Shown here: piece after piece, positions 1,269 to 14,646 of the stretch
Position numbering within the stretch: the stretch's first letter is position 1
Layout: each line of letters opens with the position of its first letter
From: a virus
Lineage: Duplodnaviria; Heunggongvirae; Uroviricota; Caudoviricetes
Virus record (IMG/VR): IMGVR_UViG_2718218127_000001
DNA length: 14,646 nucleotides
Direction: 5' to 3' (one strand)
The notes under the pieces: model-generated
Seen by the model: the letters and a program-made list of their open reading frames with translations, nothing else
Database searches by the model: none
Told to the model about the DNA's origin: nothing
Position numbers and translations under genes: made by a program

Positions 1269-1628
1269 ATGAGAATGACCAGCCGCAAAAAAGAGATACT
1301 TAGCTACTTTGAACCGGATAACCTCGAATGGGTGACTGGTGAGATTGGTGCGCCGCCGTTCGATGTGTCGGGTGTGGCCTACCTGCTTCATGGCATGGTG
1401 TCGTTCGATAAGCGCCACCAGATCGAATCAACCCGGCGCACACTGGAAAGCATGGTTGCTGGTGGACTGCTTGAGCGGGTGACAGTGTATGAATCGCGCC
1501 AGATACGGCGCGGCGGTGATACTAACGCAACGGTCGTGCGCTACGGTTTACCCGGTCAGTGCGCTGTTATGCGCGATACTGGCGGCGCTGATAACGCAAT
1601 ATCAGGTGAATACATGCGGGTCAGTTAA
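1269..1628 (+). CDS. hypothetical protein, 119 aa; the only plus-strand gene, divergent from dinD; may be the distal island gene or chromosomal
   Basis: Track ORF with ATG start at 1269 and AAGGAA upstream. No family recognised. Confidence 0.45.
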   Translation: MRMTSRKKEILSYFEPDNLEWVTGEIGAPPFDVSGVAYLLHGMVSFDKRHQIESTRRTLESMVAGGLLERVTVYESRQIRRGGDTNATVVRYGLPGQCAVMRDTGGADNAISGEYMRVS

Positions 1629-1860
1629 TAGCCTGCAATCTGTCGTTGATGCGGCTCAGGTCGTAAACCCGGCGTTCAATATCCAGCATCAGGAAATTGT
1701 GGATCTCGGCCTGCTCAGGATTATCAGACTCTCTGGCCTGTAATAGCAATTCATTGTAACCATGCAAACCGCCTGAGTTTTCCGCCGGGGTGGCGCCTTT
1801 CCCACGCAGGCAGCTAATGGGCTGATTGCTCGTATAGTTACATGTGGAATAATCCCATAT

Positions 1861-2046
1861 CTACCTACGCGGCGCTGGCTTCTTCCACTGGTAGGCAGGT
1901 GCTCGCATCATTTCGCGGAACCTGTCGCGCCGGGCTATATCGGCATTAACTGAGCGTTCTATCTCCCGTTGATCTGCCAGTGTAAGCTGGTGGCCTCCGT
2001 GCTCAAGTTTGGCGATGGTCAATAAAGCTATTTCGCGTGGTGTCAT
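1861..2046 (-). CDS. hypothetical small protein, 61 aa
   Basis: Track ORF with ATG start and an AGAGGG motif upstream. No recognisable domain. Confidence 0.3.
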   Translation of the reverse strand: MTPREIALLTIAKLEHGGHQLTLADQREIERSVNADIARRDRFREMMRAPAYQWKKPAPRR

Positions 2047-2253
2047 ACGTCATACCCTCTGGAAGGATGAAACACGCCCGGATTAAATTTCATTTTTCGC
2101 GGGTATGAAAAAACGATGGGGCGGGCAGTCCTTAAGGCTCAGGGTTGCAGAGATTTGGCCTCCCCCTCCCGGTGATAGTTTATTGCTTGATGTGGACGGC
2201 TTGCTATATTGGCGGCGAATGCAAATTGTCGCAGAAGTCTATCCCGTTCCTTG

Positions 2254-2279
2254 ACGCCCCGTGCGGGCGTTTTGCTTTT
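2254..2279 (+). terminator. putative rho-independent terminator on the plus strand
   Basis: Stem ACGCCC, loop CGTGC, stem GGGCGT, then TTTGCTTTT. The opposite strand has no U-tract. Confidence 0.35.
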
Positions 2280-2889
2280 ACAAAGTCAGGCCAATGCCTC
2301 TGGCTGCTTTCCCCGCCTTACGCTCAACCATGCCCGTGATTCTATCTACTACCGGACTGAATGCCTGCCAGTAAGCCACCTCCATTGCTGACAACTCTGC
2401 CCGCTTCCTGTCAAACGTAGCCCAGCGCATCCCCTTTGGTTTTGGGAACATGCGAATGTCATTAAACAGATTATTGGCAAGGTCATTGCTTCCCCATATC
2501 GCGCATCGCTGCTGGCGTATCTTCATTCGCATCCTGTCCAGTCTGTCGGCGCTCTGGCTTTTATAGTGGAGTTTCCAGCACGCCCGGCAGCCAATATCTT
2601 TCTTGCCGATATACAGCTTTGCAGCCCGTTTCATACAGTGGGGACAAACGTACCATTCCCGGACGCCATACCCGGCTTGTGTGGTCGTGGTTCTGATTGC
2701 CCGTGTAACGCCGTTGATTGTCATGGCGTAGCTGTCGGCTTGCCGGAAGGTATACAACGTTCCGCTTTCGGTCTGGGTATAAAGCTGCGTCCCCGGTTCG
2801 GCGTCCGCCAGCCTGCTACGCATGTTCGCAAGGAATGGCAACCCTATACGGGGCAGGTCGGTGATATAGCTGCGCGTTCTGTCTCTCAC
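2278..2889 (-). CDS. hypothetical Cys4 zinc-ribbon protein, 203 aa
   Basis: Track ORF. The start is GTG, preceded by a perfect AGGAGG 7 nt upstream. Contains CPHC-x14-CRAC (C-x2-C ... C-x2-C). Confidence 0.55.
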   Translation of the reverse strand: MRDRTRSYITDLPRIGLPFLANMRSRLADAEPGTQLYTQTESGTLYTFRQADSYAMTINGVTRAIRTTTTQAGYGVREWYVCPHCMKRAAKLYIGKKDIGCRACWKLHYKSQSADRLDRMRMKIRQQRCAIWGSNDLANNLFNDIRMFPKPKGMRWATFDRKRAELSAMEVAYWQAFSPVVDRITGMVERKAGKAARGIGLTL

Positions 2890-2992
2890 TGGCGGGCCTC
2901 CTGCGAATTACTGCGCATTAACTGCGAACGGTGCGCAAAAATGAATGCGAAATAATATGCGTATTTTACTGTAAATTGCGCACTATTTTGCG

Positions 2993-3110
2993 CACTGCGA
3001 ACCAATGGCGCGAGCCAGAATATTTTGGACTGCCTAAATCGAATATGGCTTCCAGCCCGCTACTGGCGCGGTTCTCTCTTCATATGGGCTTTGAGTCTGT
3101 CCAGTACAGT
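2993..3110. repeat. regulatory repeat block A (copy 1 of a duplicated ~80-110 bp module)
   Basis: Shares with block B a conserved stretch of the form ACCA-TGGCGCGA-CCAGAATATT-TGG ... CCTAAATC ... TTCCAGCC ... CTGGCGCGG, followed by a CTGT-N5-ACAG dyad (about 3097-3109). Preceded by several TGCGCA hexamers. Confidence 0.6.
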
Positions 3111-3143
3111 CCAGTATTTCAACATCGGTGACTATACGGATTG

Positions 3144-3521
3144 CTAACATGCGCCGTTTTTTTTAACCCTTCGCAGATCCCGCCTTGCTTGCATTGAAAC
3201 GGATCTCGCTAAACTCAGCTCAAGCCGTGCGATTCTGTCGGCATGTAGCCCCATGAGTCCGTTAATCAATGTCATCTCGCGCCATTCTTCTGTTCCCGGC
3301 GTCGGATTAGTCGCCAGTAATAGCCCGTATCTCTCAGCCATCATGAGGTTTCTTGCACGATTTCGCACCAGCGGAGAAAGCGCATCTTCTCCCTCAAACG
3401 GGAAGAATGCCCGCCTACTGCGTTCGCCATGTTTGACGGCATTAGTATTGCCCAACGGTGCGCCTGCGCCTTTCCGCTTGCCACCCCATCCGGATCTTGA
3501 TTGTTGGCTATTTTTTTTCAT
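3144..3521 (-). CDS. hypothetical basic protein, 125 aa; possible small-terminase-like or packaging-redirecting protein
   Basis: Track ORF with ATG start. The N-terminus GKRKGAGAPLGNTNAVKHG resembles motifs I associate with small terminase-type DNA-binding proteins; this is from memory and unverified. Confidence 0.5.
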   Translation of the reverse strand: MKKNSQQSRSGWGGKRKGAGAPLGNTNAVKHGERSRRAFFPFEGEDALSPLVRNRARNLMMAERYGLLLATNPTPGTEEWREMTLINGLMGLHADRIARLELSLARSVSMQARRDLRRVKKNGAC

Positions 3522-3575
3522 TTAACGGCTCACTGTGCGCAAAAACCCTAACTGAATGCGCGGTTTTGCTGCGTA

Positions 3576-3705
3576 CCTGACTGCGTACTGCGTACCAGTG
3601 GCGCGAACCAGAATATTCTGGACGACCTAAATCACGCTCTGGTTTCCAGCCCTCTGCTGGCGCGGGTTTAGCGCTACTTGGGTTTAAAATCTGTCAAGAA
3701 CAGTC
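3576..3705. repeat. regulatory repeat block B (copy 2), upstream of the 125-aa gene
   Basis: Contains the perfect 14-bp palindrome CCAGAATATTCTGG (about 3608-3621), a CTGTCAAGAACAG dyad (about 3691-3703) and CTGCGTAC repeats. It is the direct-repeat partner of block A. Confidence 0.6.
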
Positions 3706-3735
3706 TAGAATTTTAGCCTGCGTTCGGTGCGAACC

Positions 3736-4086
3736 TCACGGCACAGACGAGTACCAGTAAAAGCCTGTTAGCCCGGCATCGCAGCGCTCACGATTAAGCA
3801 CACGTGGCGGGTTTTCTCTGGTCATCAACTCAAGCAAGGCATTGCTTCCCTGCGTCTCCAGTCGGTATTGCCTGTCGGTAGTGGTAATGGCATCCGGCAA
3901 TAACTTTATGGCGGCCTGGCTAAAGTCTCGCGGTGCGCCGTAAAATTGCGCATCAACAATATGAACCACATCGCCGTTAATCGTTGTCCGATAACGGTCT
4001 GGCTGTATAGTAAAGCCCCCACAATGGATAGCAGATAGTGCCGGTGCCGATGAGATCAGGACGGCTGCCAGAATGTATGGCTTCAT
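3736..4086 (-). CDS. hypothetical secreted protein, 116 aa
   Basis: Track ORF with ATG start and GGTGGGTGA upstream. The N-terminus MKPYILAAVLISSAPALSA looks like a Sec signal peptide. Two Cys residues. Its start overlaps the upstream stop as ATGA. Confidence 0.55.
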   Translation of the reverse strand: MKPYILAAVLISSAPALSAIHCGGFTIQPDRYRTTINGDVVHIVDAQFYGAPRDFSQAAIKLLPDAITTTDRQYRLETQGSNALLELMTRENPPRVLNRERCDAGLTGFYWYSSVP

Positions 4087-4724
4087 TCTTCACCCACCAA
4101 TTCATCCAGTTCAGCCAGCGTCATAGGCTTTGGTACAGGCTTGTCAATATCACCCATAATGCGCTGGAAGTTTCTGGCAGGCATATGGTTACGGTTCTCC
4201 AGTATTTTCGCCAGCGCGATAACATCCCACCATTTCAGGGCAATCAGCGCCTCAGCACGGGAAAGTGATATTCTCTGTATATCAGCATCCTCTCCACCAG
4301 CCACCCGGTATACCTCTGATAAATCACGAACATTTTTCATGTCTGCTTTCCCGGACGTTTCCATCAGTGCGTTAATATCATCCCCCGTATAGCGTGATTG
4401 CGCGACGATACCAGCCAGAGAGATAACCATATCCCGGCATACCTGGTCTATCAGACGTAATCTGGCGTCATCGTTCGAGAGGGTGTAAGACTTAACCTCA
4501 GCCACATTCCGTGGATAGTTGGCGTGCCATACCGCGACGGCTCCACACTCATCAACATCGCCGCTAAGGTAGGTTTTTGCCACTCGGTTATTACCCGATA
4601 ACGCAATTTCTACCTCCTGTATGCCGAAAAACCATGCGGCTATCGCATGACCTGCTTCGTGTATTGCGAGATGTCTGGGCCAGCGATAGCTGCCTAACTC
4701 GATAATGATGGGTTGCGTACTCAT
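4083..4724 (-). CDS. putative zinc metallopeptidase with an HEAGH motif (FtsH/M41-like active site), about 213 aa, no AAA+ or transmembrane region
   Basis: Track ORF 4083..4781. I prefer the internal ATG (MSTQPI...) because the longer form overlaps the SSB-like gene by 47 nt and the internal start has GAGAGGGAA upstream. The motif IHEAGHAIAAW is identical over seven residues to the FtsH zinc-binding signature. Confidence 0.5.
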   Translation of the reverse strand: MSTQPIIIELGSYRWPRHLAIHEAGHAIAAWFFGIQEVEIALSGNNRVAKTYLSGDVDECGAVAVWHANYPRNVAEVKSYTLSNDDARLRLIDQVCRDMVISLAGIVAQSRYTGDDINALMETSGKADMKNVRDLSEVYRVAGGEDADIQRISLSRAEALIALKWWDVIALAKILENRNHMPARNFQRIMGDIDKPVPKPMTLAELDELVGEE

Positions 4725-4734
4725 ATCTTCCCTC

Positions 4735-5196
4735 TCAGAATGGCGTTTCATCGTCGAATGGTGGGCGTTGGTCAAAATCATCAGGGGTATTATATAACTC
4801 CCATCCCGGCGCGGATTGTGTTGTGTGGCCCCTGCTGGCTCCGCTTGCTTTGACTGATTCGGCCCGCTTCCCGCCGGGGCGTACCGTTCTGGCGCTGATC
4901 ACGCTGTCGGCTACTACCTGATAACCTTGCTGTGTACCGCCATCCTTGCCCGTCCACTGATTGATCTGCATCGCTCCGGCAACACTGACTAAATCGCCTT
5001 TAACGTGTCCTGCCAGTGCGTCGGCCTGTTTGCCGAATGCCACCACGCCCAGCCAGAAAGTAACCTCTCCGCCCTCTGCTGTATGGCAGGGCAGTGCCAC
5101 CGCTAACCGTCCCATTGCCATGCTTGTACCGTTCGTTGTGGTACGGGTCTGGGGATCTGCCACCAGCCGCCCGTATGCTGAAATTTGTGCTGTCAT
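4735..5196 (-). CDS. single-stranded DNA-binding protein (SSB-like OB fold with acidic C-terminal tail), 153 aa
   Basis: Track ORF with ATG start and GAGGAA upstream. The pattern W..VVAFGK.A......KG..V.V.G.....W....G......VV parallels the E. coli SSB core, and the C-terminus ...PPFDDETPF resembles the SSB ...DFDDDIPF tail. Confidence 0.65.
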   Translation of the reverse strand: MTAQISAYGRLVADPQTRTTTNGTSMAMGRLAVALPCHTAEGGEVTFWLGVVAFGKQADALAGHVKGDLVSVAGAMQINQWTGKDGGTQQGYQVVADSVISARTVRPGGKRAESVKASGASRGHTTQSAPGWELYNTPDDFDQRPPFDDETPF

Positions 5197-5495
5197 AGAT
5201 ATTTCCTCATGTAGTCACTACCTCCGGGGATAATTTTCATTTCTTCCCTTAAAGGCCACTGCTCCGCCATTGCTGCGGTCGAGTGATTCCCGTCATCACG
5301 TCCGGCCTGTGCTGCCGTCCAGTGTGTTGCATATTCTGTAAATCCAATTTCTGCTGGCTGCCTCATCCAGTGGGCGATCATCCTCAAGGTCATTTGCAGG
5401 CTTTGGGTGTCGCCCTGTAATGCGCGTTTGTCAGTAAACCCCTTCAATGCTTCACGCTCCTGATAGGTCATTTTCTGGCTGGTTTCTGTATTCAT
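5193..5495 (-). CDS. hypothetical protein, 100 aa; first gene after the origin
   Basis: Track ORF with ATG start and GAGGTG 5 nt upstream. Its stop overlaps the SSB-like start as ATGA. Confidence 0.5.
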   Translation of the reverse strand: MNTETSQKMTYQEREALKGFTDKRALQGDTQSLQMTLRMIAHWMRQPAEIGFTEYATHWTAAQAGRDDGNHSTAAMAEQWPLREEMKIIPGGSDYMRKYL

Positions 5496-5548
5496 TGCCC
5501 ACCTCGTTATAAGCTACCCCCCCCATAGAATCTTTTTGGGGGTGTAAT

Positions 5549-5800
5549 ATCCCTACCAATCCCTACTAACTGGCTCAGGCCACGAATGGCAAGGCTTTCA
5601 GACTGGTAGACATTCAATTTTGTTGCCCTACATAACCCTACTTATCCCTACTAAATCACTTCAACGGCATTTTACTGCCTGTTTTATTTGGTAGGGATAA
5701 GTAGGGATAAGTAGGGATAAAAATATATATCCCTACCTAGTTTAAAGCCTTGCTACGTCTGGCCTCGTCTCGTTTTTAGTAGGGCAGTAGGGATAAGTGC
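5549..5800. repeat. iteron-type replication origin
   Basis: At least 11 copies of a TAGGGATAAG / CCCTAC core with 10-bp phasing: inverted-orientation copies near 5549-5566 and 5626-5651, three perfect tandem GTAGGGATAA units at 5691-5720, an AT-rich stretch AAAATATATAT, then further copies near 5731 and 5779-5796. Lies immediately 3' of the primase gene. Confidence 0.7.
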
Positions 5801-5813
5801 CGCCGTAAAAGTT

Positions 5814-8255
5814 TCAATCATCACTCTGCCCGCTCTCCACACCGTAAGCGCGTGGCATGAACTCCTCAGCCTTCTCGTTATAGCCAACGTTGGTTTGCGC
5901 TCTGCCGTTAATGCTTCTCGTCAGGTAGCTGGCTCGGTACTCTTTTGCTGCTGATTTTATGGCGCGTGAAAACTTATTGACGGAAAGCGGTTTACCCAAA
6001 CCGTGATACTCCATAAACGCCAGATAAAGATGATAAAGATACGTCCTCGGCTCTGGCTGGCCTGCCCATGTACCTCCGCCCATCATCATGCCTTTGGGTT
6101 CGTTCATGAAAAAAAGCGCCGCACACATATCGACAACCGGATCCGTGCCGCGTTTAACCTCTAGCGCCTCCTGCGAATCGCGCTGCTCTAGTAATAGTGC
6201 CTTTGCTTTGTTCTGGTCGGCAAAGGTGGTTAGCAGGTGGCGGATAATCACCGGGATTTCTCGCCTGATTTTTGCGGTTAAATCCGGGTCTTTGTCTGCG
6301 TCTGATACCGGGTTATTAAACGGGAATATCACGCGGCGGCGGGCAATGCCCCCGTTTCGCTCCGTGAATGTCATTGGCTCGTTATTGGTTGCCATAACAA
6401 CGGCATTTATCACGGTTGTGAACTGCTTTTCATATTTCCCATCAATCTCTACCGGATCGCCGCCCGTAATGGCTTTAATCCCCGCACCCTCTCCAACGTA
6501 GCGGGTCTGGTCAGGCATAATAATCAGGCTTTTCCCTACGAACTGCGCCCGTCCCCGTGCGGTGTCCAGCGTCATCATGCTACCGCTGGCGGTGTTGTGT
6601 TCACCTGCCAGCGTGGTTGCTATGCTGCTGAATACGGATTTCCCACTGCCGCCCTCGCCAGTTATCTCAATGAATAGCTGCCAGTCGTGACGCTTCGCCA
6701 GCACCATAAACAAGGCTGCTTTGATACGCTCGGCCTTATGATGGTCGCCAGCCGTTGCATGATTCAGCCAACGGGTAAAATTGGGGGCGCTGGTGGAAAT
6801 ATTCTCCCCCGGCGCTGGCGGGGTGTAGGTGATCCCATTGTGGTTCATCAGCCAGTTACCCGGCGAATGGGCGGAAAACGTCTGCGTAGCGAGGTCATAA
6901 ACGCCGTTATCAAAACCAATCAGATCCCCGCTCCGCTCACCAATTACCGGTATTTGCAGCTTCATGGTTGCGACAACCGATTTAATCCCTTTTTCGGTGT
7001 AGTGGGCTTCGTGCTCGTCGAAAATTGCCACCATAACCCTTTCTAATTCGCTGTCTGGTAGCTTCACCCATACGCCAGATTCGTAGCAGTAAACAGCGCC
7101 ACTATCAGGGTTGACCGCCAACATATCCCAGCGAGATGAAAGCAACCGCGCTTTCTGGCTGGCTGCCATTTGTGCAATATCTCCGACTTCGGCTTTACGG
7201 CGGGATTTACCGCCCACAATGGCCTGTAGTTGTGGTTTCACGGCTTCCCCCTGAATCTGGTACATCGAATCGTTAAACGCAGCCGTAGCGACTTCCAGCC
7301 CGTTTTGCTGGCGGTAGTCGTCCCAGTCGGCTTTGTAGTCTGTCGGCGGCAGCGCCACCCAGCCAGCCACGGATAAGGCGGCTTTCTCTGCGGCATCTTT
7401 GCCCGTGTTCGCCTGTTCGTCCTGCTGGTGGTCGTTATCTGCGGCAATGATAATTTGCGACTGCGGGTGTTTCCGGCGCATTACTCCGGCAACGTGGATC
7501 AGGTTCCCGGCGTCAATTGCCGCCACTGTAAGCGCGTCCGGGCGCATCAGGTGAACGGACAGGGCCGTCGCCAGCCCCTCGGCAATTAATACGCTCTGCG
7601 GCTGTTCTGGTGCGTTTACGGCGTGATATGCCCCGCGCTTTGCTGAACCTGTCAGGAGTCGCTTCTCTCCCTGCGGTGTAATGGTTTGCGCTGCTGCCAC
7701 TGCGCCGGATTCGTCCACCAGCTCCAGCAATAACGAACCATCCGGCATAACCGGATAGTTAAACCCGGTCAGCCCTTTTGATTGCAGGTAATCAGATTCT
7801 CCCTGTGTGGCACTCTGGCGCATTCCGGCATACAGACGGGCAAACGTAGCCCTTCGCTGCTCTGCATCCTCTGCTGCCTGTTTCTGGCGCTCCTGCTCAC
7901 GCTGCTGGCGGTCAGCTTCCAGTTGCTCTCTTCTATGGCTCGCTGCCACCGGGTCGGTTTGCGCTGCCCGGTAATCAATACCCAGCACATCAGCGGCAAG
8001 CTGTGCCGCCTCCGTAGTGTCGCAGTTGTTCACCTTCTTAATCAGGTCTAAACCGTCACCAGCGCCACACTGATTGCAGATAAAGCTACCGCGCCCGTTG
8101 TCGTCGAATCTGAAACGGTCTTTTCCACCACATGCAGGGCATGGAGAATGGCGGCGCGATGAATCAGGCACGTCGATAGACAATCCAGCCAGCACATAAG
8201 GCCAGCGCCCGGCGGCGGCACTGGTCACTTCGCGGATAAGGTCGATATTACGCAT
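5814..8255 (-). CDS. P4-alpha-like bifunctional DNA primase/helicase, 813 aa
   Basis: Track ORF with ATG start. N-terminal zinc ribbon CPACGGKDRFRFDD...FICNQCGAGDG, a central TOPRIM-like region, and a C-terminal NTPase with Walker A GEGGSGKS. Confidence 0.88.
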   Translation of the reverse strand: MRNIDLIREVTSAAAGRWPYVLAGLSIDVPDSSRRHSPCPACGGKDRFRFDDNGRGSFICNQCGAGDGLDLIKKVNNCDTTEAAQLAADVLGIDYRAAQTDPVAASHRREQLEADRQQREQERQKQAAEDAEQRRATFARLYAGMRQSATQGESDYLQSKGLTGFNYPVMPDGSLLLELVDESGAVAAAQTITPQGEKRLLTGSAKRGAYHAVNAPEQPQSVLIAEGLATALSVHLMRPDALTVAAIDAGNLIHVAGVMRRKHPQSQIIIAADNDHQQDEQANTGKDAAEKAALSVAGWVALPPTDYKADWDDYRQQNGLEVATAAFNDSMYQIQGEAVKPQLQAIVGGKSRRKAEVGDIAQMAASQKARLLSSRWDMLAVNPDSGAVYCYESGVWVKLPDSELERVMVAIFDEHEAHYTEKGIKSVVATMKLQIPVIGERSGDLIGFDNGVYDLATQTFSAHSPGNWLMNHNGITYTPPAPGENISTSAPNFTRWLNHATAGDHHKAERIKAALFMVLAKRHDWQLFIEITGEGGSGKSVFSSIATTLAGEHNTASGSMMTLDTARGRAQFVGKSLIIMPDQTRYVGEGAGIKAITGGDPVEIDGKYEKQFTTVINAVVMATNNEPMTFTERNGGIARRRVIFPFNNPVSDADKDPDLTAKIRREIPVIIRHLLTTFADQNKAKALLLEQRDSQEALEVKRGTDPVVDMCAALFFMNEPKGMMMGGGTWAGQPEPRTYLYHLYLAFMEYHGLGKPLSVNKFSRAIKSAAKEYRASYLTRSINGRAQTNVGYNEKAEEFMPRAYGVESGQSDD

Positions 8256-8589
8256 GGTTGCCTCCTGCCACGGTCGCGCCCATGTCTTTAACCATGCTTT
8301 GCCATATCTCGCGCCCGACGTCAGTCAATCCGTCCTTAGTGACGCAACGCTCAAGAAGCTCGACCCCCACGGTTTCCCACTGCGGGTAGGACACTTTCAT
8401 GGCTGCCAGTGTGTAGCTATCGATCAGGCTGCGAACGCCTTTTACTCCATTGACGATTTCCACACGGACGGCGAGGCCGTCCGCATCAACCATGAAATAG
8501 TCCCCGCCGCTGGTGGAGGTAATGTGGTTATACAGTGCCGACGCATATTTATTAGCCAGCGCATTCAGTCGGAAATTTTTAGTAATCAT
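8248..8589 (-). CDS. hypothetical protein, 113 aa
   Basis: Track ORF with ATG start and GAGGGG upstream. Overlaps the primase start by 8 nt. Confidence 0.55.
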   Translation of the reverse strand: MITKNFRLNALANKYASALYNHITSTSGGDYFMVDADGLAVRVEIVNGVKGVRSLIDSYTLAAMKVSYPQWETVGVELLERCVTKDGLTDVGREIWQSMVKDMGATVAGGNHA

Positions 8590-8597
8590 GTCGCCCC

Positions 8598-9224
8598 TCA
8601 GTGCGGCAGCGGCATTTCAGGCCAGCCGTTTTCATCCAGTTCAGCTATAAAGCTGTTGTGAAGTTCAGCAAGCGTTTCACGTCCGAACGGGGTAAGCTCG
8701 CCGCGCTCCGTATCCAGCATCGCCTTATAAAACACAATGGCTTTTTCCGTACCCTGTTCGACGCCGTATCGCTCAATCATTGCGCCCTCGATGTTGTTCG
8801 CCATCGCCAGCCGTTCAGCAAACGGGTAAATCACCATGCCCGCATTACCATTGGAGTAAATCGCCACCTGCGATGTTGTGCCGTCAGCCTCCGTGACGGA
8901 GGTTGTGCCGTTTTCGCGCTTCATTTCAGAAACGAACTTCGCAGCAATCAGCCAGCGCCACATAGTGACGTTATGCTGCGCGGTAAAGTCGAACCAGCCA
9001 CGCGCCCCGCCATCAGCAACGGCAAAATGAATGGCGTAGCCGATATCTGGCGTATCGTCGTACTCTCCCGCATCCAGACGGCTTACAGCGCTCTCATAGG
9101 TGATAATGGCTACATGCTCATACATCCCGGCATCATTGCGGGTCATGATGTTTACGCCGTGCGGTGTGGCTTCGGCGTGTAATAAGTCGGCATTTCCCGA
9201 TTTAATGGTCGGTGCGTTGCTCAT
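8598..9224 (-). CDS. hypothetical protein, 208 aa
   Basis: Track ORF with ATG start overlapping the upstream stop (ATGA). No domain recognised. Confidence 0.55.
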   Translation of the reverse strand: MSNAPTIKSGNADLLHAEATPHGVNIMTRNDAGMYEHVAIITYESAVSRLDAGEYDDTPDIGYAIHFAVADGGARGWFDFTAQHNVTMWRWLIAAKFVSEMKRENGTTSVTEADGTTSQVAIYSNGNAGMVIYPFAERLAMANNIEGAMIERYGVEQGTEKAIVFYKAMLDTERGELTPFGRETLAELHNSFIAELDENGWPEMPLPH

Positions 9225-9484
9225 GCGCTGCCCTCCGCATCAATTCTGGCTATATCGACAATCGTCAGGACTTTACTAAGCCAGCAATACACGATTTCGG
9301 CCTGTTCATCGTTTAGTTGAGTGGCTAAATCGGTCATAACGTGAGCCAGCCCATTGCGGGCGCGGGTCATGCGTTCTGCCGTTCGGTCTGCCAGCGTAAA
9401 ATCATCCGGGTAAGCCTGCTCGCGGGATAACATCGCTTCGGCTTCCAGCTCTGCCGGGTGGCGATAGATGGTAGTTATGTTCAT
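9221..9484 (-). CDS. hypothetical acidic protein, 87 aa
   Basis: Track ORF, part of the coupled operon. Confidence 0.45.
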   Translation of the reverse strand: MNITTIYRHPAELEAEAMLSREQAYPDDFTLADRTAERMTRARNGLAHVMTDLATQLNDEQAEIVYCWLSKVLTIVDIARIDAEGSA

Positions 9485-9795
9485 TTGCCCGCCCTCCCTT
9501 TGGCTTCTTTTTCACTGATTGAGCGCAAGAATGCGGCGTTTGCAGCGCTATCGTTCAGCGCCCGCGCAACTTCTCCGATATGTCCCAGCATTGCGCCTAA
9601 TCTGTACATATCAGCCCTAACGCTTTCCGCCGGGTAGTCATCGCTATTAGCCGCCCAGAACATGAGGCTACCGATGGCACTTACGCCCAGCATTAAATCA
9701 TTCACGGCATCACTGGCGCGGCTCTCAATTCCGTTCAGATCATCAGGTGTACAACCATCAAAGTCGCAGGACACTAAATCGTTATACAGGCTCAT
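9481..9795 (-). CDS. hypothetical protein, 104 aa
   Basis: Track ORF with ATG start overlapping the upstream stop (ATGA). Confidence 0.45.
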   Translation of the reverse strand: MSLYNDLVSCDFDGCTPDDLNGIESRASDAVNDLMLGVSAIGSLMFWAANSDDYPAESVRADMYRLGAMLGHIGEVARALNDSAANAAFLRSISEKEAKGRAGK

Positions 9796-9971
9796 GCTGC
9801 CACCTCACGAACGCGGGTAATCTGGATGTGGGAAAGGCGTTCATTTCTGGCCTGATTTAGCGCCTCAGCTTTGGCGCTGATCGCGCTGCGGGCGTCAACG
9901 ATATAAACGAACTCGACTAATTCGCCGCTCCGGGCGGTGGCGCATCCTGCAACACGGAAGTAATTAAGCAT
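9792..9971 (-). CDS. hypothetical small protein, about 59 aa from the internal ATG
   Basis: Track ORF 9792..10001 begins with TTG. The internal ATG (MLNYF...) has AGGGGG upstream and overlaps the preceding stop by 8 nt. Confidence 0.35.
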   Translation of the reverse strand: MLNYFRVAGCATARSGELVEFVYIVDARSAISAKAEALNQARNERLSHIQITRVREVAA

Positions 9972-10155
9972 GTGCGCCCCCTGTGCGAATACGTCCGGCA
10001 AAAAAGCAAACGTGATCCCGCGCCAGAATGCGGCGGGCTTCCTGCTCAGTCTCTGCGGCGATATGGTGAATTTTGGCGGTAATTGTCGGCATATCGCGGC
10101 GAACTGCTGCGATAATCCAGATAAATTGCGGTTTTTGGGTAGGGGTAGTAGCCAT
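9964..10155 (-). CDS. hypothetical small protein, 63 aa; first gene of the replication-module operon
   Basis: C-terminal part of the track's 250-aa GTG ORF. It has an ATG with a strong AAGGAGG 8 nt upstream (MATTPTQKPQ...). Confidence 0.45.
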   Translation of the reverse strand: MATTPTQKPQFIWIIAAVRRDMPTITAKIHHIAAETEQEARRILARDHVCFFAGRIRTGGAHA

Positions 10156-10182
10156 TATGGCAGCCTCCTTTGTGTTTAAGGA

Positions 10183-10221
10183 GTCACCGCCTGAGTTTCC
10201 ACGCTCTGAAATGGCGGTGAC
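10183..10221 (-). promoter_or_regulatory. stem-loop in the 5' leader of the replication-module operon
   Basis: Inverted repeat GTCACCGCC ... GGCGGTGAC (9-bp arms, about 21-nt loop). On the minus strand it is followed by TCCTT, which could pair with the AAGGAGG of the 63-aa gene. Confidence 0.3.
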
Positions 10222-10345
10222 GTTAGCAGGGGTGGAAATACCGGACACAAAGGAAACCGGCCTACGCGAACGTAGCCCCACTAACGCCACCATAGATACA
10301 GTACGGACGAGGCCGCTGATTTGATGTGCGTAGTGATCGGACACA

Positions 10346-10367
10346 AAAAAAGACGCTTTCGGCGTCT
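10346..10367 (-). terminator. putative rho-independent terminator on the minus strand
   Basis: Minus strand reads AGACGC-CGAAA-GCGTCT followed by TTTTTTT. It sits between the regulatory module and the replication module. Confidence 0.45.
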
Positions 10368-10654
10368 GTGTCGCCCTTAGTGTGTTCGGGTTTCCACGCC
10401 CGGTTGCTGATTTTGCAGCAACGCTTGGACTATAACAGCTTTTCTCTGCTAGGTGGTCATACCAGATAAAACCGTAACCCTTTAAGAGTTTTTCCTGTGC
10501 ACGGCTCACCATCTTTTTGTTGAGGGTAAGCGCCTCGCGTACTGGTAACGGAACTCCGGGCGCTGCGGTATCAATATCAGGTTTTGTAAGGTTGCAGATG
10601 TCAACTTTTGACAACATGCCAGCCAGATTAAAGGCTTCTTTCTGGGCGGCAGGT

Positions 10655-10837
10655 TCATTCAGTATCACGGCGCACCTCCACGAACTCATTAACGAATCTC
10701 TCCAAAGGCTGAACACATGGCGACTGATAGCCCTCGCGGTAAAAGGTCACTCGGTTATGCTCGACGCGCTGTACGGTCACTACAGCCCCGTGACTGTCCT
10801 TGTAACGGCTTCCCGGCATCGGATTATGGTTACGCAT
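10655..10837 (-). CDS. hypothetical small protein, 60 aa
   Basis: Track ORF with ATG start and GGAGGT 6 nt upstream. Overlaps the upstream stop by 8 nt. Confidence 0.5.
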   Translation of the reverse strand: MRNHNPMPGSRYKDSHGAVVTVQRVEHNRVTFYREGYQSPCVQPLERFVNEFVEVRRDTE

Positions 10838-11663
10838 GGTTTACCTCCAGACGTTTAGCGAGCCAGCGCTGAGAGAGGCGGATTAGCTCGGCTTTACGCA
10901 GGTCATATCCCATACCCATATCAATTAACGTGATATTGGTGCTTTCGAGATAGGCGAGGTGTTCAAGCTGTGCTGCGTTCATGCTGTCCCGTGGTTCGCC
11001 AGTAATGCCATTTGCCTGCGCCCACTGCTTCGCCGTCATGCCACCCAGCACGATACGGGCGATCATGTTGCTCTCGTTGCTGTAGTGGCGCTGCTGCGTC
11101 GTTTTACCCTGCTCGGCACGGGCCATATTCAGCGCATCGCACATTGGCTTAAAGTTGTTTGCGGCACTGATACGGGCTTTTAGCTGGCGACGATAGCGGG
11201 CGGCGATTTCAGGCACGCTACGCTGTAATTCTTCCTCGCACTGGATGAAATAACGGCGGATAGCGCGGCCCTGTTCGGTGCGTTCGACCATCGCCAGTTC
11301 TTTCGCCATTCCGACACTTAACAGATAGTCTTTGCCGGGTCTGCCAGACTGTTTAATCTTGCTGTAAGCCGCGCCATTCGGGCTTTTCCCCAGATTTGGG
11401 GAAATTGTTTTATGGACTGAGTAATCGTGCCCAATGGTGAAGTCATATTCAGAGATGCGATCAGCGATCCATGTAGAGAAGTCTTTTCCCACGCCCAACG
11501 CTTTGTGTAACGCTTTTGCGCTAACAATATTGGTTTCACGCCCACCGATATGACCAGGAATAACCGGGACAATTGTGGCAAATTCATTACCGTTAATTGT
11601 TCCCTGATAGGCGTTCAGATGAGGGGCGGCCTCAGAAATTAATCTGCTTTTTTCGATGTTCAT
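10830..11663 (-). CDS. phage antirepressor-like regulatory protein (AntA/KilAC-like), 277 aa
   Basis: Track ORF with ATG start and GGAGA upstream. The segment DYLLSVGMAKELAMVERTEQGRAIRRYFIQCEEEL resembles phage antirepressor / Bro-KilA type proteins; this assignment is from memory. Confidence 0.45.
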   Translation of the reverse strand: MNIEKSRLISEAAPHLNAYQGTINGNEFATIVPVIPGHIGGRETNIVSAKALHKALGVGKDFSTWIADRISEYDFTIGHDYSVHKTISPNLGKSPNGAAYSKIKQSGRPGKDYLLSVGMAKELAMVERTEQGRAIRRYFIQCEEELQRSVPEIAARYRRQLKARISAANNFKPMCDALNMARAEQGKTTQQRHYSNESNMIARIVLGGMTAKQWAQANGITGEPRDSMNAAQLEHLAYLESTNITLIDMGMGYDLRKAELIRLSQRWLAKRLEVNHA

Positions 11664-11675
11664 TTTCAGTCTCCG

Positions 11676-12110
11676 TTAGGCGGCGGTGAGATTGTCCGGG
11701 TATAGGTTGAGAATGTCGGCAATTTCAGGCTGAGAAAGTCCCTGATAGCCGCCAGCGTCGGCGTTATGGTTCACAAGCCGAATAACTTTCAGAACGTCAC
11801 CGCGCCCGGTAAAGCGATAGCGTAAATGTGACCCTATCCCGTCGGGGTTCTTTTCGTCTATACGCTCAAGCTGAATATCAAGCCTGCGCTCTAACTCACT
11901 GGCGTAGTTCCTTCCAGACGAAAGGCGGCAATAACGCAGAATGTCGTTTTCTGTCCATCCCTCTACGCCAGTACGCAGCATATAGACGCGGGCGCGGTGT
12001 TTCTTTGGGGTTCGCTTAGGTACTTGTACCGGGCTGGTGGTCGGCGTAATATCAGACGTGCGAATATCTGAGTTAGCCGCCTGCTGTACGGGGCGGTTTT
12101 TCTTTTTCAT
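11676..12110 (-). CDS. hypothetical basic protein, 144 aa
   Basis: Track ORF. Its ATG overlaps the alpA stop (TAATG), so it is translationally coupled to alpA. Confidence 0.5.
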   Translation of the reverse strand: MKKKNRPVQQAANSDIRTSDITPTTSPVQVPKRTPKKHRARVYMLRTGVEGWTENDILRYCRLSSGRNYASELERRLDIQLERIDEKNPDGIGSHLRYRFTGRGDVLKVIRLVNHNADAGGYQGLSQPEIADILNLYPDNLTAA

Positions 12111-12313
12111 TACGCCACCTTTCCCCGGCGCTCCGCCAGCCAGTTGTGAATATCAGCCGCATCAAAGGCGGTAATCTTCTCGCCCAGCTTTACCGGACGT
12201 GGTAGTGAACCGTTTCTTACTTTACGGTCGATGGTGGATACACTAACGCCCAGCAATTCAGCCAGGCGAAAGCGTCTGATATAGCCTTTTGTAGGGATAG
12301 TGTCGATGTTCAT
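12110..12313 (-). CDS. alpA: AlpA-family (Vis/excisionase-like) HTH transcriptional regulator, 67 aa
   Basis: Track ORF with ATG start and AAGAGG upstream. The helix-turn-helix LAELLGVSVSTIDRKVRNG and its small size and position next to a P4-type integrase are typical of AlpA/Vis. Confidence 0.72.
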   Translation of the reverse strand: MNIDTIPTKGYIRRFRLAELLGVSVSTIDRKVRNGSLPRPVKLGEKITAFDAADIHNWLAERRGKVA

Positions 12314-12425
12314 GATTCCCGTAACCTCTTAGCGATAGTTGTTGCTTCGTTACGGGTATTTAATGGTGTGTATGCTCAAAAGTGAATTACAGTAAATTTT
12401 ATTGTCACGATACTAAATTTTATTA

Positions 12426-13271
12426 TCATGATTTCTTCTTTCCTGCCGTGGTACGTTTTTCCGGCAATCTGTCCATGTCAGATATGATCTTCTTTAAATA
12501 ATCTGCAGATGGTTCATCATAATCGCCACCCACATGTGGCCAGTGGTCTATCGTAGCGTTTGCCCACGCTTCGTTGGTTTCTTTCCCGTTTTTCCCTTTG
12601 CACTCTTCAGGATAGTGCCGTTTCACATAAATCAACGCCATAATGCTATTCTCACGGTTTAGGCTATGTCGTGCTCTATTTCCATGCTCTATGTTTTTAA
12701 ATTCCTTTTCATAAAGATCGTGTGAACCCAAATGGAGTATGCTGGATATTGGCTGATTTTTATCCATGCTTTCAGCTATATATTCAACCCACGGTCTTGA
12801 TATATACAAATCTTCCACAGACGATACGGTGGTATCATATTCGCGAAAATCGTAGAAAAAGTAACATCCTGATGTGATGTCTAGTTCTTTTTTTATATAT
12901 GCTGGTGAGAATATGAGTGGAATGTCAGGGACTCTCTTAACCCCTGCAAGGGAAGCAATGAAATCTCTAGGAACGTGCCATAATCCACTTGCTGAGCACT
13001 TCATACCATCGAAAAAACCTTCATTTAGATATCTTTCGGTATCTTCTCTAGTAGAAATAATAGAACCAAATAATAAGTTTTCTATGCCTTTGCTGCCGTG
13101 GTCTGGTGGCAAGTTTCCCACTTGAAGGAGTACGCCTTCATACTTGTGAATTATTGTGCTCAAAAATATAGAGCCTGATACTCCCATAAGTAGAAGATCA
13201 TCGACTTCTATTTCTAATAAATTTGCTGCTCTATTAAGTCGGAAAAAAAGATTTGGTGGTAGTTTTTTCAT
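12426..13271 (-). CDS. hypothetical orphan cargo protein, about 281 aa, AT-rich
   Basis: Track ORF 12426..13286 begins with GTG. The ATG five codons in (MKKLPPN...) has AGGTGA upstream. Base composition is visibly more AT-rich than the flanking genes. No family recognised. Confidence 0.6.
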   Translation of the reverse strand: MKKLPPNLFFRLNRAANLLEIEVDDLLLMGVSGSIFLSTIIHKYEGVLLQVGNLPPDHGSKGIENLLFGSIISTREDTERYLNEGFFDGMKCSASGLWHVPRDFIASLAGVKRVPDIPLIFSPAYIKKELDITSGCYFFYDFREYDTTVSSVEDLYISRPWVEYIAESMDKNQPISSILHLGSHDLYEKEFKNIEHGNRARHSLNRENSIMALIYVKRHYPEECKGKNGKETNEAWANATIDHWPHVGGDYDEPSADYLKKIISDMDRLPEKRTTAGKKKS

Positions 13272-13386
13272 TGCGTCACCTTTCACGCTACGCCTTAATG
13301 AGCGATTGAGTCAGGCGGTAAGGCTTCCCGCTTTTCACCCCGTCGGGCTAGACTCAATCTGTCCTCTGATTCTTTACATATCTTGG

Positions 13387-14646
13387 TTACTTCGCCTTTC
13401 TCAGCGGTGTAACGTTGTATTCCTGCCCCTGTTCCAGTGCCACCAGCAATCCCGCCCACTGTGTTAACGCGGCCCGGCGTTCATCAAAGTATTGGTGGCG
13501 GTTATAGATACCCTCCACGCCTTTAATTTTGTGGTTGAGGCATCTTTCAGCCACTACGGGATCAACGCCCAGCGCGGCTAAATGGGTGCGGGCTGTGCGC
13601 CGGAAGTCGTGAATAGTGAAATTCGGCACGTCCGGCATTTCAGCGCGAACCTTAGCCAGTGCTACGGGTAAAGTGCTTTCCTGAATATGTGGGATCATGC
13701 GGTTTTGCATCTTTCTGGCTGGCAGTACCCATGCGCTGTTGCATGAGAACGTTTTAAGCTCTCTCAGCCATTCGACGGCTGGCGGTGCTAATGGAATGTC
13801 TATAGCGTCGCCGTTTTTGCTGCGTTCCTCTGGCAAGCGCCATACGGCTTTATCAAAATCGAACTCCTCCCAGCGGGCGGCGCATAACTCCATTTTGCGG
13901 ACGCATAACGCTAACAGTAATTTGAACGTGATTTCGTTCTGGCGACTGAATCCCTTAGCCGTGCGCATGGCTTTGAATAGCTGGATTAACTCATCGCGGG
14001 TTAACCAGCGGTCACGGGCAACTTCTTTCCCTCCAGCGTCGGCAACCTCAAAGGCTGAACACGGGTTAATCTCCAGTGCGTGCCGCTTAATGCCGTAGTC
14101 AAATATGCGGCGTGTCCAGCGCAGAACGTCCGTTGCTATGGTCGGCGCTCCACGGTCAACAATACCTTTCAGCATGTCATCGATATGGCGCGGCTTCACG
14201 TCCTCCACCTTCATGCTGCCAATGCAGGGGTTTATATCTTTGTCGATACGGCGGCGGAGTATATCGGGGTGCTTCCAGCGCGGAAGGATCTGACGCTCAA
14301 AGTATTCAGCGGCAAGCTCTGAAACGCGCATAGCGTTCTTCTCTGCTTCCATCTTCGCCAGTGCTTCGGTTTTGCGCCTCTGCTTCTCTCCTGCAACGTC
14401 ATAGCCCAGCGCAACGCGAGCCGATAGCTCTTTGGCTGTCTCTCTGGCCTTTGATAGTGATAGCTCGGCATATGAGCCAATCAGCATGGCGCGGGGTTTC
14501 CCTGCGAATTTATAGCGGAATCGCCAGACGGGGGTCTGGTAGTTTTCGCGGTATGAAAGATAAAGCCCGTTACCGTCAGAGCGTCCCTCGAATCGCTCCC
14601 CGGCCTTTATCCATGCGCGGATCTGCATGTCTGTGAGTTTTGGCAT
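13387..14646 (-). CDS. int: P4-type tyrosine integrase, 419 aa; start codon at the window edge
   Basis: Track ORF with ATG at 14644-14646. N-terminal arm-binding-like region (GLYLSYRENYQTPVWRFRYKF) and a C-terminal catalytic region with the HDFRRT...H..Y tyrosine-recombinase pattern. Confidence 0.9.
   Translation of the reverse strand: MPKLTDMQIRAWIKAGERFEGRSDGNGLYLSYRENYQTPVWRFRYKFAGKPRAMLIGSYAELSLSKARETAKELSARVALGYDVAGEKQRRKTEALAKMEAEKNAMRVSELAAEYFERQILPRWKHPDILRRRIDKDINPCIGSMKVEDVKPRHIDDMLKGIVDRGAPTIATDVLRWTRRIFDYGIKRHALEINPCSAFEVADAGGKEVARDRWLTRDELIQLFKAMRTAKGFSRQNEITFKLLLALCVRKMELCAARWEEFDFDKAVWRLPEERSKNGDAIDIPLAPPAVEWLRELKTFSCNSAWVLPARKMQNRMIPHIQESTLPVALAKVRAEMPDVPNFTIHDFRRTARTHLAALGVDPVVAERCLNHKIKGVEGIYNRHQYFDERRAALTQWAGLLVALEQGQEYNVTPLRKAK

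Follow-up and report, generated by a model that had tools for sequence, protein, structure and literature searches.

The closest described relative of the element considered here is EcCIMP1 of Escherichia coli MP1, a phage-inducible chromosomal island (PICI) that excises and circularises only on induction of its P22-like helper Kapi1, requires its own int and alpA, and is transduced at low frequency (PMC11773190). Its authors classed it as a 'Type C #var01' PICI and proposed a late module of P22-like ejection genes for packaging (PMC11773190). PICI-like elements of Type C, which have int, alpA and primase only, number in the thousands and are left out of conservative satellite censuses because of doubts over their functionality; EcCIMP1 is the one experimentally validated example. 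Here we describe an element in IMG/VR virus record IMGVR_UViG_2718218127_000001, a stretch of 14,646 nucleotides (the window) in which the host DNA is that of E. coli. We read it as a complete Gram-negative PICI-type satellite of ~13.8 kb, bounded by attachment (att) sites, belonging to the EcCIMP1-like lineage and inserted at the 3′ end of yicC, and we give this reading, together with the life cycle proposed below, a probability of about 0.65. Anatomy, RNA pairing, origin structure and homologies were computed here, and the mechanism is modelled on P1, P4, EcCICFT073 and EcCIMP1.

The island is delimited on both sides, with att repeats at each end. In K-12, dinD and yicC are adjacent, 220 bp apart; in the window and in related genomes the island sits between the two, with dinD at 1–837 (−). 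For the left end, the empty K-12 site was aligned with the left junction of the window and with the right junctions of relatives, which gave a 21-bp identity block, TTAYTCGATRTTCTGAATCTG, made up of the last six codons and the stop codon of yicC. For the right end, public assemblies encoding the identical integrase protein were sought, and in these yicC always lies 189 bp from it. Two contigs, L017 (GCA_036422075.1) and L020, match the final 4,260 bp of the window with 100% identity and run from the integrase start through 189 bp to TTACTCGATATTCTGAATCTG and the body of yicC, followed by rph and pyrE. The right island end therefore lies 189 bp past the window, inside the yicC stop region at the 21-bp repeat, and the island measures ~13.77 kb. 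An earlier reading of the letters alone (the sequence-only reading) had placed the element from 1269 to the window edge. Its start moves out to the att copy at 1046–1064 and its end to 189 bp beyond the window, while dinD on the left, the integrase at the right edge and a size of 10–15 kb were all as that reading had it. The att site and target that it had suggested seeking to the right were found at the yicC 3′ end in L017 and L020.

Since both att copies are located, no structural gene of the element lies outside the window, where it has only 189 bp with four GGTGTAC(A/C)C repeats (L017 2812–3000, between yicC and int). These repeats are probably arm-type Int sites, and two similar motifs near the opposite end are tentative candidates for the same role (see the table). 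Although it carries synonymous changes, the island-borne att copy still encodes the QIQNIE* end of yicC, and integration therefore preserves the gene; the integrated part would supply a synonymous replacement of the last codons. All eight islands inspected at the yicC 3′ end are of the same type. No tRNA target was found in the window, and the literature on a yicC/dinD integration hotspot yielded nothing relevant. Some islands at the yicC site carry a second, island-borne dinD next to the chromosomal one (L015 1776–2600, E. coli XJ5.2, and also hit H24).

The components that the sequence-only reading had listed, namely integrase, AlpA, AntA, a P4-alpha-like primase and an adjacent iteron origin, were all recovered (Pfam, PHROG, iteron shuffles). 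It had also seen no capsid, tail, large terminase (TerL) or lysis gene, and this was confirmed: none of the 21 open reading frames (ORFs) has a capsid, portal, tail, large-terminase, holin or endolysin family match in Pfam, PHROGs or NCBIfam, and seven related islands at the same site have no structural or lysis gene. Its statement that all genes share one strand is correct for 20 of the 21, which lie on the − strand with int and alpA co-oriented, and fails for the terminal gene at 1269–1628, which is on the + strand and conserved in relatives. Its central claim, that this is a satellite and not a prophage, is upheld by the att boundaries, by the lack of structural and lysis genes here and in the seven same-site islands, and by a backbone homologous to that of helper-dependent EcCIMP1. 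Integrase, antirepressor, primase and single-strand DNA-binding protein (SSB) are also found in prophages, but with both ends defined, no structural or lysis remnant in 13.8 kb, the same compact gene order in hundreds of genomes and no likeness to any record in the phage collection except for 49 bp of antA, a degraded prophage is extremely improbable.

EcCIMP1 has the same gene order, and eleven backbone proteins are 58–98% identical between the two. The backbone from AntA to orf113 occurs in 923 complete E. coli genomes (~17%), at several loci and also with other integrases, and the int-side junction in 458 of 5,426 (~8%); because of these frequencies we regard the lineage as a common but little-studied carrier of cargo. 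When nine islands were compared, a conserved backbone and two variable slots emerged, and the int, primase and all backbone ORFs of the window are intact and 88–100% identical to those of several relatives. The first slot lies between the int-alpA RNA motif and alpA, since the motif directly follows the int stop codon and precedes orf286 rather than standing beside alpA. Three of the nine islands hold orf286 there and five others hold unrelated genes; EcCIMP1 has no gene at this position. Just nine clusters are homologous to orf286, all hypothetical, and it has no match in PADLOC, Pfam, PHROG or NCBIfam. The direct repeats ahead of alpA are a possible operator through which AlpA would regulate its own gene, and AlpA itself is 32–33% identical to P4 Vis. 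Within antA, the 49-bp stretch (11356–11404) has 98% identity to sequences of many Stx-converting phages and related short-tailed ones, as well as to prophages of E. coli genomes. Same-architecture islands of ~10 kb, with a 419-aa integrase, were found on Klebsiella-type contigs (L021–L023) at a syntenic locus next to yicG-ligB-gmk; after SSB these have only PerC, an orf125 homologue and an opposite-strand orf119-like gene.

The replication module pairs a P4 alpha-type primase-helicase with iterons immediately downstream. Aligned from end to end (812 aa), the protein and P4 alpha have 38.5% identity; with the EcCICFT073 primase, identity is 55% in the C-terminal half. The iteron copies form two inverted sets flanking an AT-rich spacer (~5656–5690). 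Allowing up to one mismatch, GTAGGGATA occurs 12 times in the window, nine of them within 5548–5795, and none of 200 shuffles reached 12. Two iteron sets around an AT-rich region beside pri are the origin layout of Gram-negative PICIs (PMC6092414), and 5547–5798 is predicted from this layout to be the origin. An exact iteron copy also occurs at 12291–12299, within the first alpA codons and distant from the origin. Such a primase-origin replicon, with two variable cargo slots and no recognisable packaging gene, might also be expected of a phage-independent integrative cargo or defence island, such as an episome with its own replicon or an element mobilised by conjugation. Scans with Pfam, PADLOC and NCBIfam, however, found no relaxase, oriT, partition or conjugation gene, PADLOC matched no defence system among ten unknown proteins, and the backbone relative EcCIMP1 needs a helper phage for excision and transfer; we consider such an island highly improbable.

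In the immI region of P1 and P7, a single transcript yields the C4 RNA by processing and also contains both of its targets, a1/b1 and a2/b2, the second of which lies over the icd ribosome-binding site. The island is organised like P1/P7 immI and the immunity region of P4, with a C4 RNA between an upstream and a downstream target. The C4, isrK/a1b1 and int-alpA RNAs all exceed their Rfam gathering scores, and RF01695 was also found in EcCIMP1, L001, L002 and P4. The upstream target is closed by an intrinsic terminator at 10367–10346 (terminator scan and Rfam). Downstream, the C4 hairpin loop UUUCCUUUGUGU (loop sequence element CCUUUGUGU) pairs with AACACAAAGGAGGCUG at 10176–10161, spanning the Shine-Dalgarno sequence of the Icd-like ORF, with a computed energy of −20.2 kcal/mol; 1 of 500 shuffled targets was equally strong. 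A second single-stranded C4 segment, UUUCCAC, is complementary to GUGGAAA, which occurs in the a1/b1 region upstream and again downstream. The Icd-like ORF is 39–42% identical to the P4 region downstream of CI. A 250-aa ORF (9964–10716, −), named 'Icd-like' or 'ash family' by PGAP in relatives, reads through the isrK/a1b1 and C4 RNA genes. Its Pfam Phage_ASH match (residues 95–195) coincides exactly with the segment bearing these RNAs, so that what is taken for an Ash 'protein' domain may be mostly a signature of RNA conservation. Earlier work on Gram-negative PICIs noted C4 and isrK matches in their 'Bro zone' (PMC10111431), so the RNA module is informative rather than new.

The C4/CI RNA with its seqA-like target is one of several features that a divergent P4-like satellite relying on a P2-like helper would share, along with the full-length alpha-type primase, the Vis-like AlpA and a P4-type integrase fold. 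To these can be added an exact 14-nt match, AGGCGGGGAAAGCA at 2305–2318 (−), to the core of the 19-nt cohesive end of P2 and P4. This candidate was dropped as a cos site, as it is coding and its flanks differ from the cos bases; lying inside orf203 and absent from all fetched relatives, including the closest one with the orf203 gene, it is probably a chance match. The iterons of the origin bear no sequence relation to the type-1 repeats of P4, and the nearest relative, EcCIMP1, is mobilised by a P22-like phage (PMC11773190). In tblastn searches at E ≤ 0.01, none of P4 sid, delta, psu, epsilon, cnr, gop, beta and cII had a match (best, beta with E 0.016 and gop with 0.28, over 12–18 residues), and psu, delta and sid had none in the window even at E ≤ 1. 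With only three of the seven P4-like core components present, we judge a P4-like satellite of this kind very unlikely.

The second variable slot is the late zone after SSB, which has four genes. orf232 encodes a protease domain without an AAA+ or membrane part. A profile of its family hits the PDB entry for the FtsH protease domain (E 6.5e-11), residues H22, E23, H26 and D128 are invariant in the family, and the top Foldseek matches of its AlphaFold2 model (predicted local distance difference test score, pLDDT, 90.7) are exclusively FtsH, AFG3L2 and FtsHi. Four of the nine related islands also have the orf116–orf232 pair in their late zone, and none of the nine has orf125. In 35 of 35 members of the orf125 family, a 25-residue motif is common with the NF040601 small terminase (TerS), at 19 bits against a cut-off of 120, and a fold search was uninformative. 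The orf125 homologue of the ~10-kb Klebsiella-type islands is their last same-strand gene, after PerC. With its TerS motif, orf125 is the best candidate for a terminase-redirecting (packaging-redirection) factor, a speculative assignment. orf203 has no family match in Pfam, PHROG, NCBIfam or PADLOC, and orf119, in the terminal module, has none in PHROG, PADLOC or NCBIfam. Concrete candidates for the missing packaging and interference functions are orf125, the FtsH-like protease domain and the conserved terminal module. Since P4-type RNA immunity and an alpha primase are here combined with a PICI layout and no capsid-size genes, islands of the yicC/EcCIMP1 type could even form a distinct lineage bridging P4 and PICIs, with undescribed packaging through terminase redirection by the orf125 family, and with the FtsH-like protease and orf286 as new helper-interference or anti-phage functions; we hold this to be doubtful.

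Several observations weigh against a complete PICI-type satellite. Only three of five PICI core components are recognisable. No gene can be recognised as TerS, Rpp or a capsid-morphogenesis gene, every protein falls below all TerS cut-offs, and tblastn detected no similarity to the capsid and decoration genes or RppA of EcCICFT073, nor any counterpart of the EcCIMP1 late module of P22-like ejection genes. Of the packaging sites sought, lambda-type cosN gave only chance-level matches with two mismatches inside genes, and the P2/P4 cos 19-mer gave nothing at three or fewer mismatches; both were rejected. The integrase and AlpA are just ~30% identical to those of EcCIMP1. Finally, a conserved gene of the pRiA4b-ORF3 family is truncated: a 420-bp gap at ~1836–1838, the same against all six aligned relatives (blastn), has removed its first 110 codons, and only residues 111–180 of 180 are covered in the window (tblastn). 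None of the six has the deletion, and the gene is annotated as intact in all nine islands compared.

The same truncation, together with the want of a recognisable packaging determinant, could mean that the island is a grounded, defective copy of this lineage, a remnant kept for its cargo and no longer mobilisable. The att copies differ by 2 nt, three relatives have 10–11-nt deletions in the int-distal att, showing that decay does occur at the locus, and EcCIMP1 itself transfers at very low frequency. Yet the integrase (419 aa), alpA, primase (813 aa), origin and RNA module are all intact. The 2-nt difference was considered as decay and set aside as the main reading: the 19-nt left att form is that of the majority (5 of 8 islands compared at the yicC site), so the difference was probably inherited from attP, and an imperfect attP is a simpler explanation than decay. 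We therefore regard a defective copy as unlikely and retain a complete satellite as the preferred reading.

Such a satellite would work as follows. In the quiescent state, a constitutive C4/CI-type RNA would pair with the upstream (a1/b1, seqA-like) and downstream targets as in P1 and P4; pairing over the Icd-like ribosome-binding site would block translation and, through polarity or termination, keep the downstream replication genes off. By analogy with EcCICFT073 and EcCIMP1, the lytic cycle of a helper phage would induce alpA and so activate the island operon. Int would then excise the element, and the alpha-type primase-helicase and SSB would fire the iteron origin beside the primase gene. 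Replicated DNA would enter helper capsids, possibly with orf125, through its TerS motif, redirecting the terminase, and the AntA protein may act on the helper repressor. Cargo would be carried in the int-alpA slot (orf286) and in the late zone (FtsH-like protease, orf116, orf125 and orf203).

Table. Features of the island in the window (positions from the first letter of the window; identities are to the EcCIMP1 counterpart).
Feature	Position	Strand	Identity to EcCIMP1	Remarks
Integrase-distal att core copy TTATTCGATGTTGAATCTG	1046–1064	none		19-nt imperfect copy of the 21-bp TTAYTCGATRTTCTGAATCTG, without 'CT'
Possible arm-type integrase sites AGGTACACC / GTGTACAC	1127–1149	none		two motifs resembling the GGTGTAC(A/C)C repeats; read by eye from the sequence
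orf119, terminal gene	1269–1628	+	98%	sole + strand gene; 97–99% identical in all nine compared islands, including ones with other integrases
pRiA4b-ORF3-family gene remnant	1624–1833	−		last 70 codons; truncated by the 420-bp deletion
orf61, small terminal gene	1861–2046	−	98%	95–98% identical in all nine relatives; phrog_7271
orf203, late-zone cargo gene	2278–2889	−		CxxC...CxxC motifs; in 2/9 relatives, 63–72% identity
orf125, small late-zone protein	3144–3521	−		invariant N-terminal motif SGWGGKRxGAGAPxGNxNAVKHGERS, common to a phage small-terminase family
orf116, small protein	3736–4086	−		N-terminal signal-peptide-like segment (ORF list); translationally coupled to the protease gene; no family match
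orf232, standalone FtsH-type (M41) zinc-protease domain	4083–4781	−		likely start gives 213 aa (4083–4724); HEAGH motif and invariant Asp
SSB	4735–5196	−		Pfam SSB 1.1e-14; ~52–61% identical to EcCICFT073 SSB
orf100, between origin and SSB	5193–5495	−		97–100% identical in 8/9 relatives
Predicted replication origin	5547–5798	none		~10 copies of GTAGGGATA, 10-bp phasing, directly 3′ of the primase stop codon
Primase-helicase, P4 alpha type	5814–8255	−	72% (N-terminal 348 aa)	813 aa; Pfam Zn-ribbon, Toprim, D5_N, DUF5906, Pox_D5
Five small conserved backbone ORFs (orf113, orf208, orf87, orf104, orf69)	8248–10001	−	orf113 95%, orf208 66%, orf87 58%	between icd-like and primase; PHROG unknown-function families
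Icd-like ORF	9964–10155	−	85%	63 aa, ATG at 10155; first gene downstream of the C4 RNA; PGAP name in relatives
C4 target (b2-like)	10161–10176	−		over Shine-Dalgarno AAGGAGG of the Icd-like ORF; duplex with C4 loop
C4/CI-type antisense immunity RNA	10210–10297	−		Rfam RF01695, 81.1 bits (gathering score 45), full length
Upstream C4 target region (a1/b1, P4 seqA-like; also isrK match)	10346–10435	−		RF01394 72.2 bits, RF03163 55.1 bits
DUF4222 protein	10655–10837	−	70%	Pfam 1.4e-22
AntA/Bro-network antirepressor-like protein	10830–11663	−	90%	Pfam AntA 1.9e-21; PHROG anti-repressor families
orf144, directly after alpA	11676–12110	−	78%	77–100% identical in all nine relatives; no family match
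AlpA-family regulator	12110–12313	−	33%	Pfam Phage_AlpA 1.8e-7, HTH_17; downstream of int, same strand
Two 21-nt direct repeats (TAAATTTTATTATCACGATAC-like) upstream of alpA	12393–12432	none		Tandem Repeats Finder (TRF) score 66; overlap the orf286 stop codon
orf286, low-GC cargo gene in the variable int-alpA slot	12426–13286	−		GC 42–44%
int-alpA RNA motif	13292–13358	−		Rfam RF02996, 57.1 bits (gathering score 35.8); also in L001, L002
Tyrosine integrase, yicC 3′ end specific	13387–14646	−	29%	419 aa, intact; Arm-DNA-bind_3, Phage_int_M, Phage_integrase domains (Pfam); PHROG

To place the island among known systems, SatelliteFinder definitions (PMC10085698) were applied to the family and tblastn results. 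Three of the five core components of the PICI model were found, namely the integrase, the alpA regulation module and the primase-replicase, which corresponds to 'Type C'. No capsid-morphogenesis component was recognised by Pfam, PHROG, NCBIfam or comparison with EcCICFT073, the SatelliteFinder profiles themselves not being run. The components forbidden in PICIs (tail, holin, and the portal and connector of capsid-forming PICIs, cfPICIs) are absent from an element whose ends are defined, and the island has no own capsid, portal, head-tail connector or TerL of the cfPICI kind. In the P4-like model (PMC8628076, PMC10085698), three of seven core components are present, int (27% identity), alpA (32–33%) and alpha (38.5%); psu, delta, sid and epsilon are missing, as is a P2-type cos. 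The sequence-only reading had placed the element closer to PICIs than to P4 and had noted the lack of sid, delta and psu. Both points stand, given the PICI gene order and origin layout and the absence of four of the seven P4 core genes, with the caveat, drawn from the same comparisons, that only three of five PICI core components are present and that two P4-like traits are kept, the C4/CI RNA with its targets and the full-length alpha-type primase.

The island resembles P1/P7 immI (c4-icd-ant) in its C4 RNA and in a second target over the icd ribosome-binding site, with the pairing computed here, and Gifsy-1 IsrK of Salmonella in that the isrK model matches its upstream target and terminator. 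It differs from immI in that the antirepressor gene is upstream of C4, not downstream of icd, and that satellite replication genes follow icd. With P4 it shares the CI/C4 RNA, an upstream seqA-like target, a downstream target at the next ORF and the same two Rfam matches, besides the protein similarities given above. In contrast, the eight P4 genes listed above as unmatched and the P2/P4 cos are absent, the origin repeats and gene order differ, and there is no divergent late operon.

The gene order and origin layout of Gram-negative PICIs (PMC6092414, PMC10111431) are matched by the island. With the canonical members, EcCICFT073 included (PMC6092414, PMC6739421), it shares a unidirectional int-alpA-...-primase-ori-SSB order, an iteron origin after the primase, Icd-like and DUF4222 genes, a size of 10–15 kb and the absence of tail and lysis genes. 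Identity to EcCICFT073 is 55% for the primase helicase half, 52–61% for SSB, 42% for DUF4222 and 36% for the Icd-like protein. The RppA, capsid, head-decoration and PerC genes of EcCICFT073, on the other hand, have no counterpart here, nor is there a lambda-like cos; EcCICFT073 in turn has no C4 or isrK match at the gathering score, and its primase has no Zn-ribbon/Toprim N-terminal half that aligns with the one here.

The gene order shared with EcCIMP1 runs through int, alpA, orf144, AntA, DUF4222, the Ash/C4/Icd-like region, the small ORFs, the primase and the terminal module of orf61 and orf119; both elements have the same C4 and isrK RNAs and both score as 'Type C'. They differ in target (tRNA-Thr in EcCIMP1, yicC here), in integrase and AlpA, in the helicase half of the primase (DUF927 in EcCIMP1, D5/DUF5906 here) and in the pRiA4b-ORF3 gene, truncated in the window. 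The late module of EcCIMP1 contains P22-like ejection genes, PerC and a second AlpA, whereas its position is held here by SSB, the FtsH-like protease, orf116, orf125 and orf203. The island adds a fully delimited Type C example whose att site is defined and lies in a protein gene, at the 3′ end of yicC, with a backbone common to the one validated element of that type. By all these sequence comparisons it is not a new kind of system but a member of the already described EcCIMP1-like lineage of E. coli.

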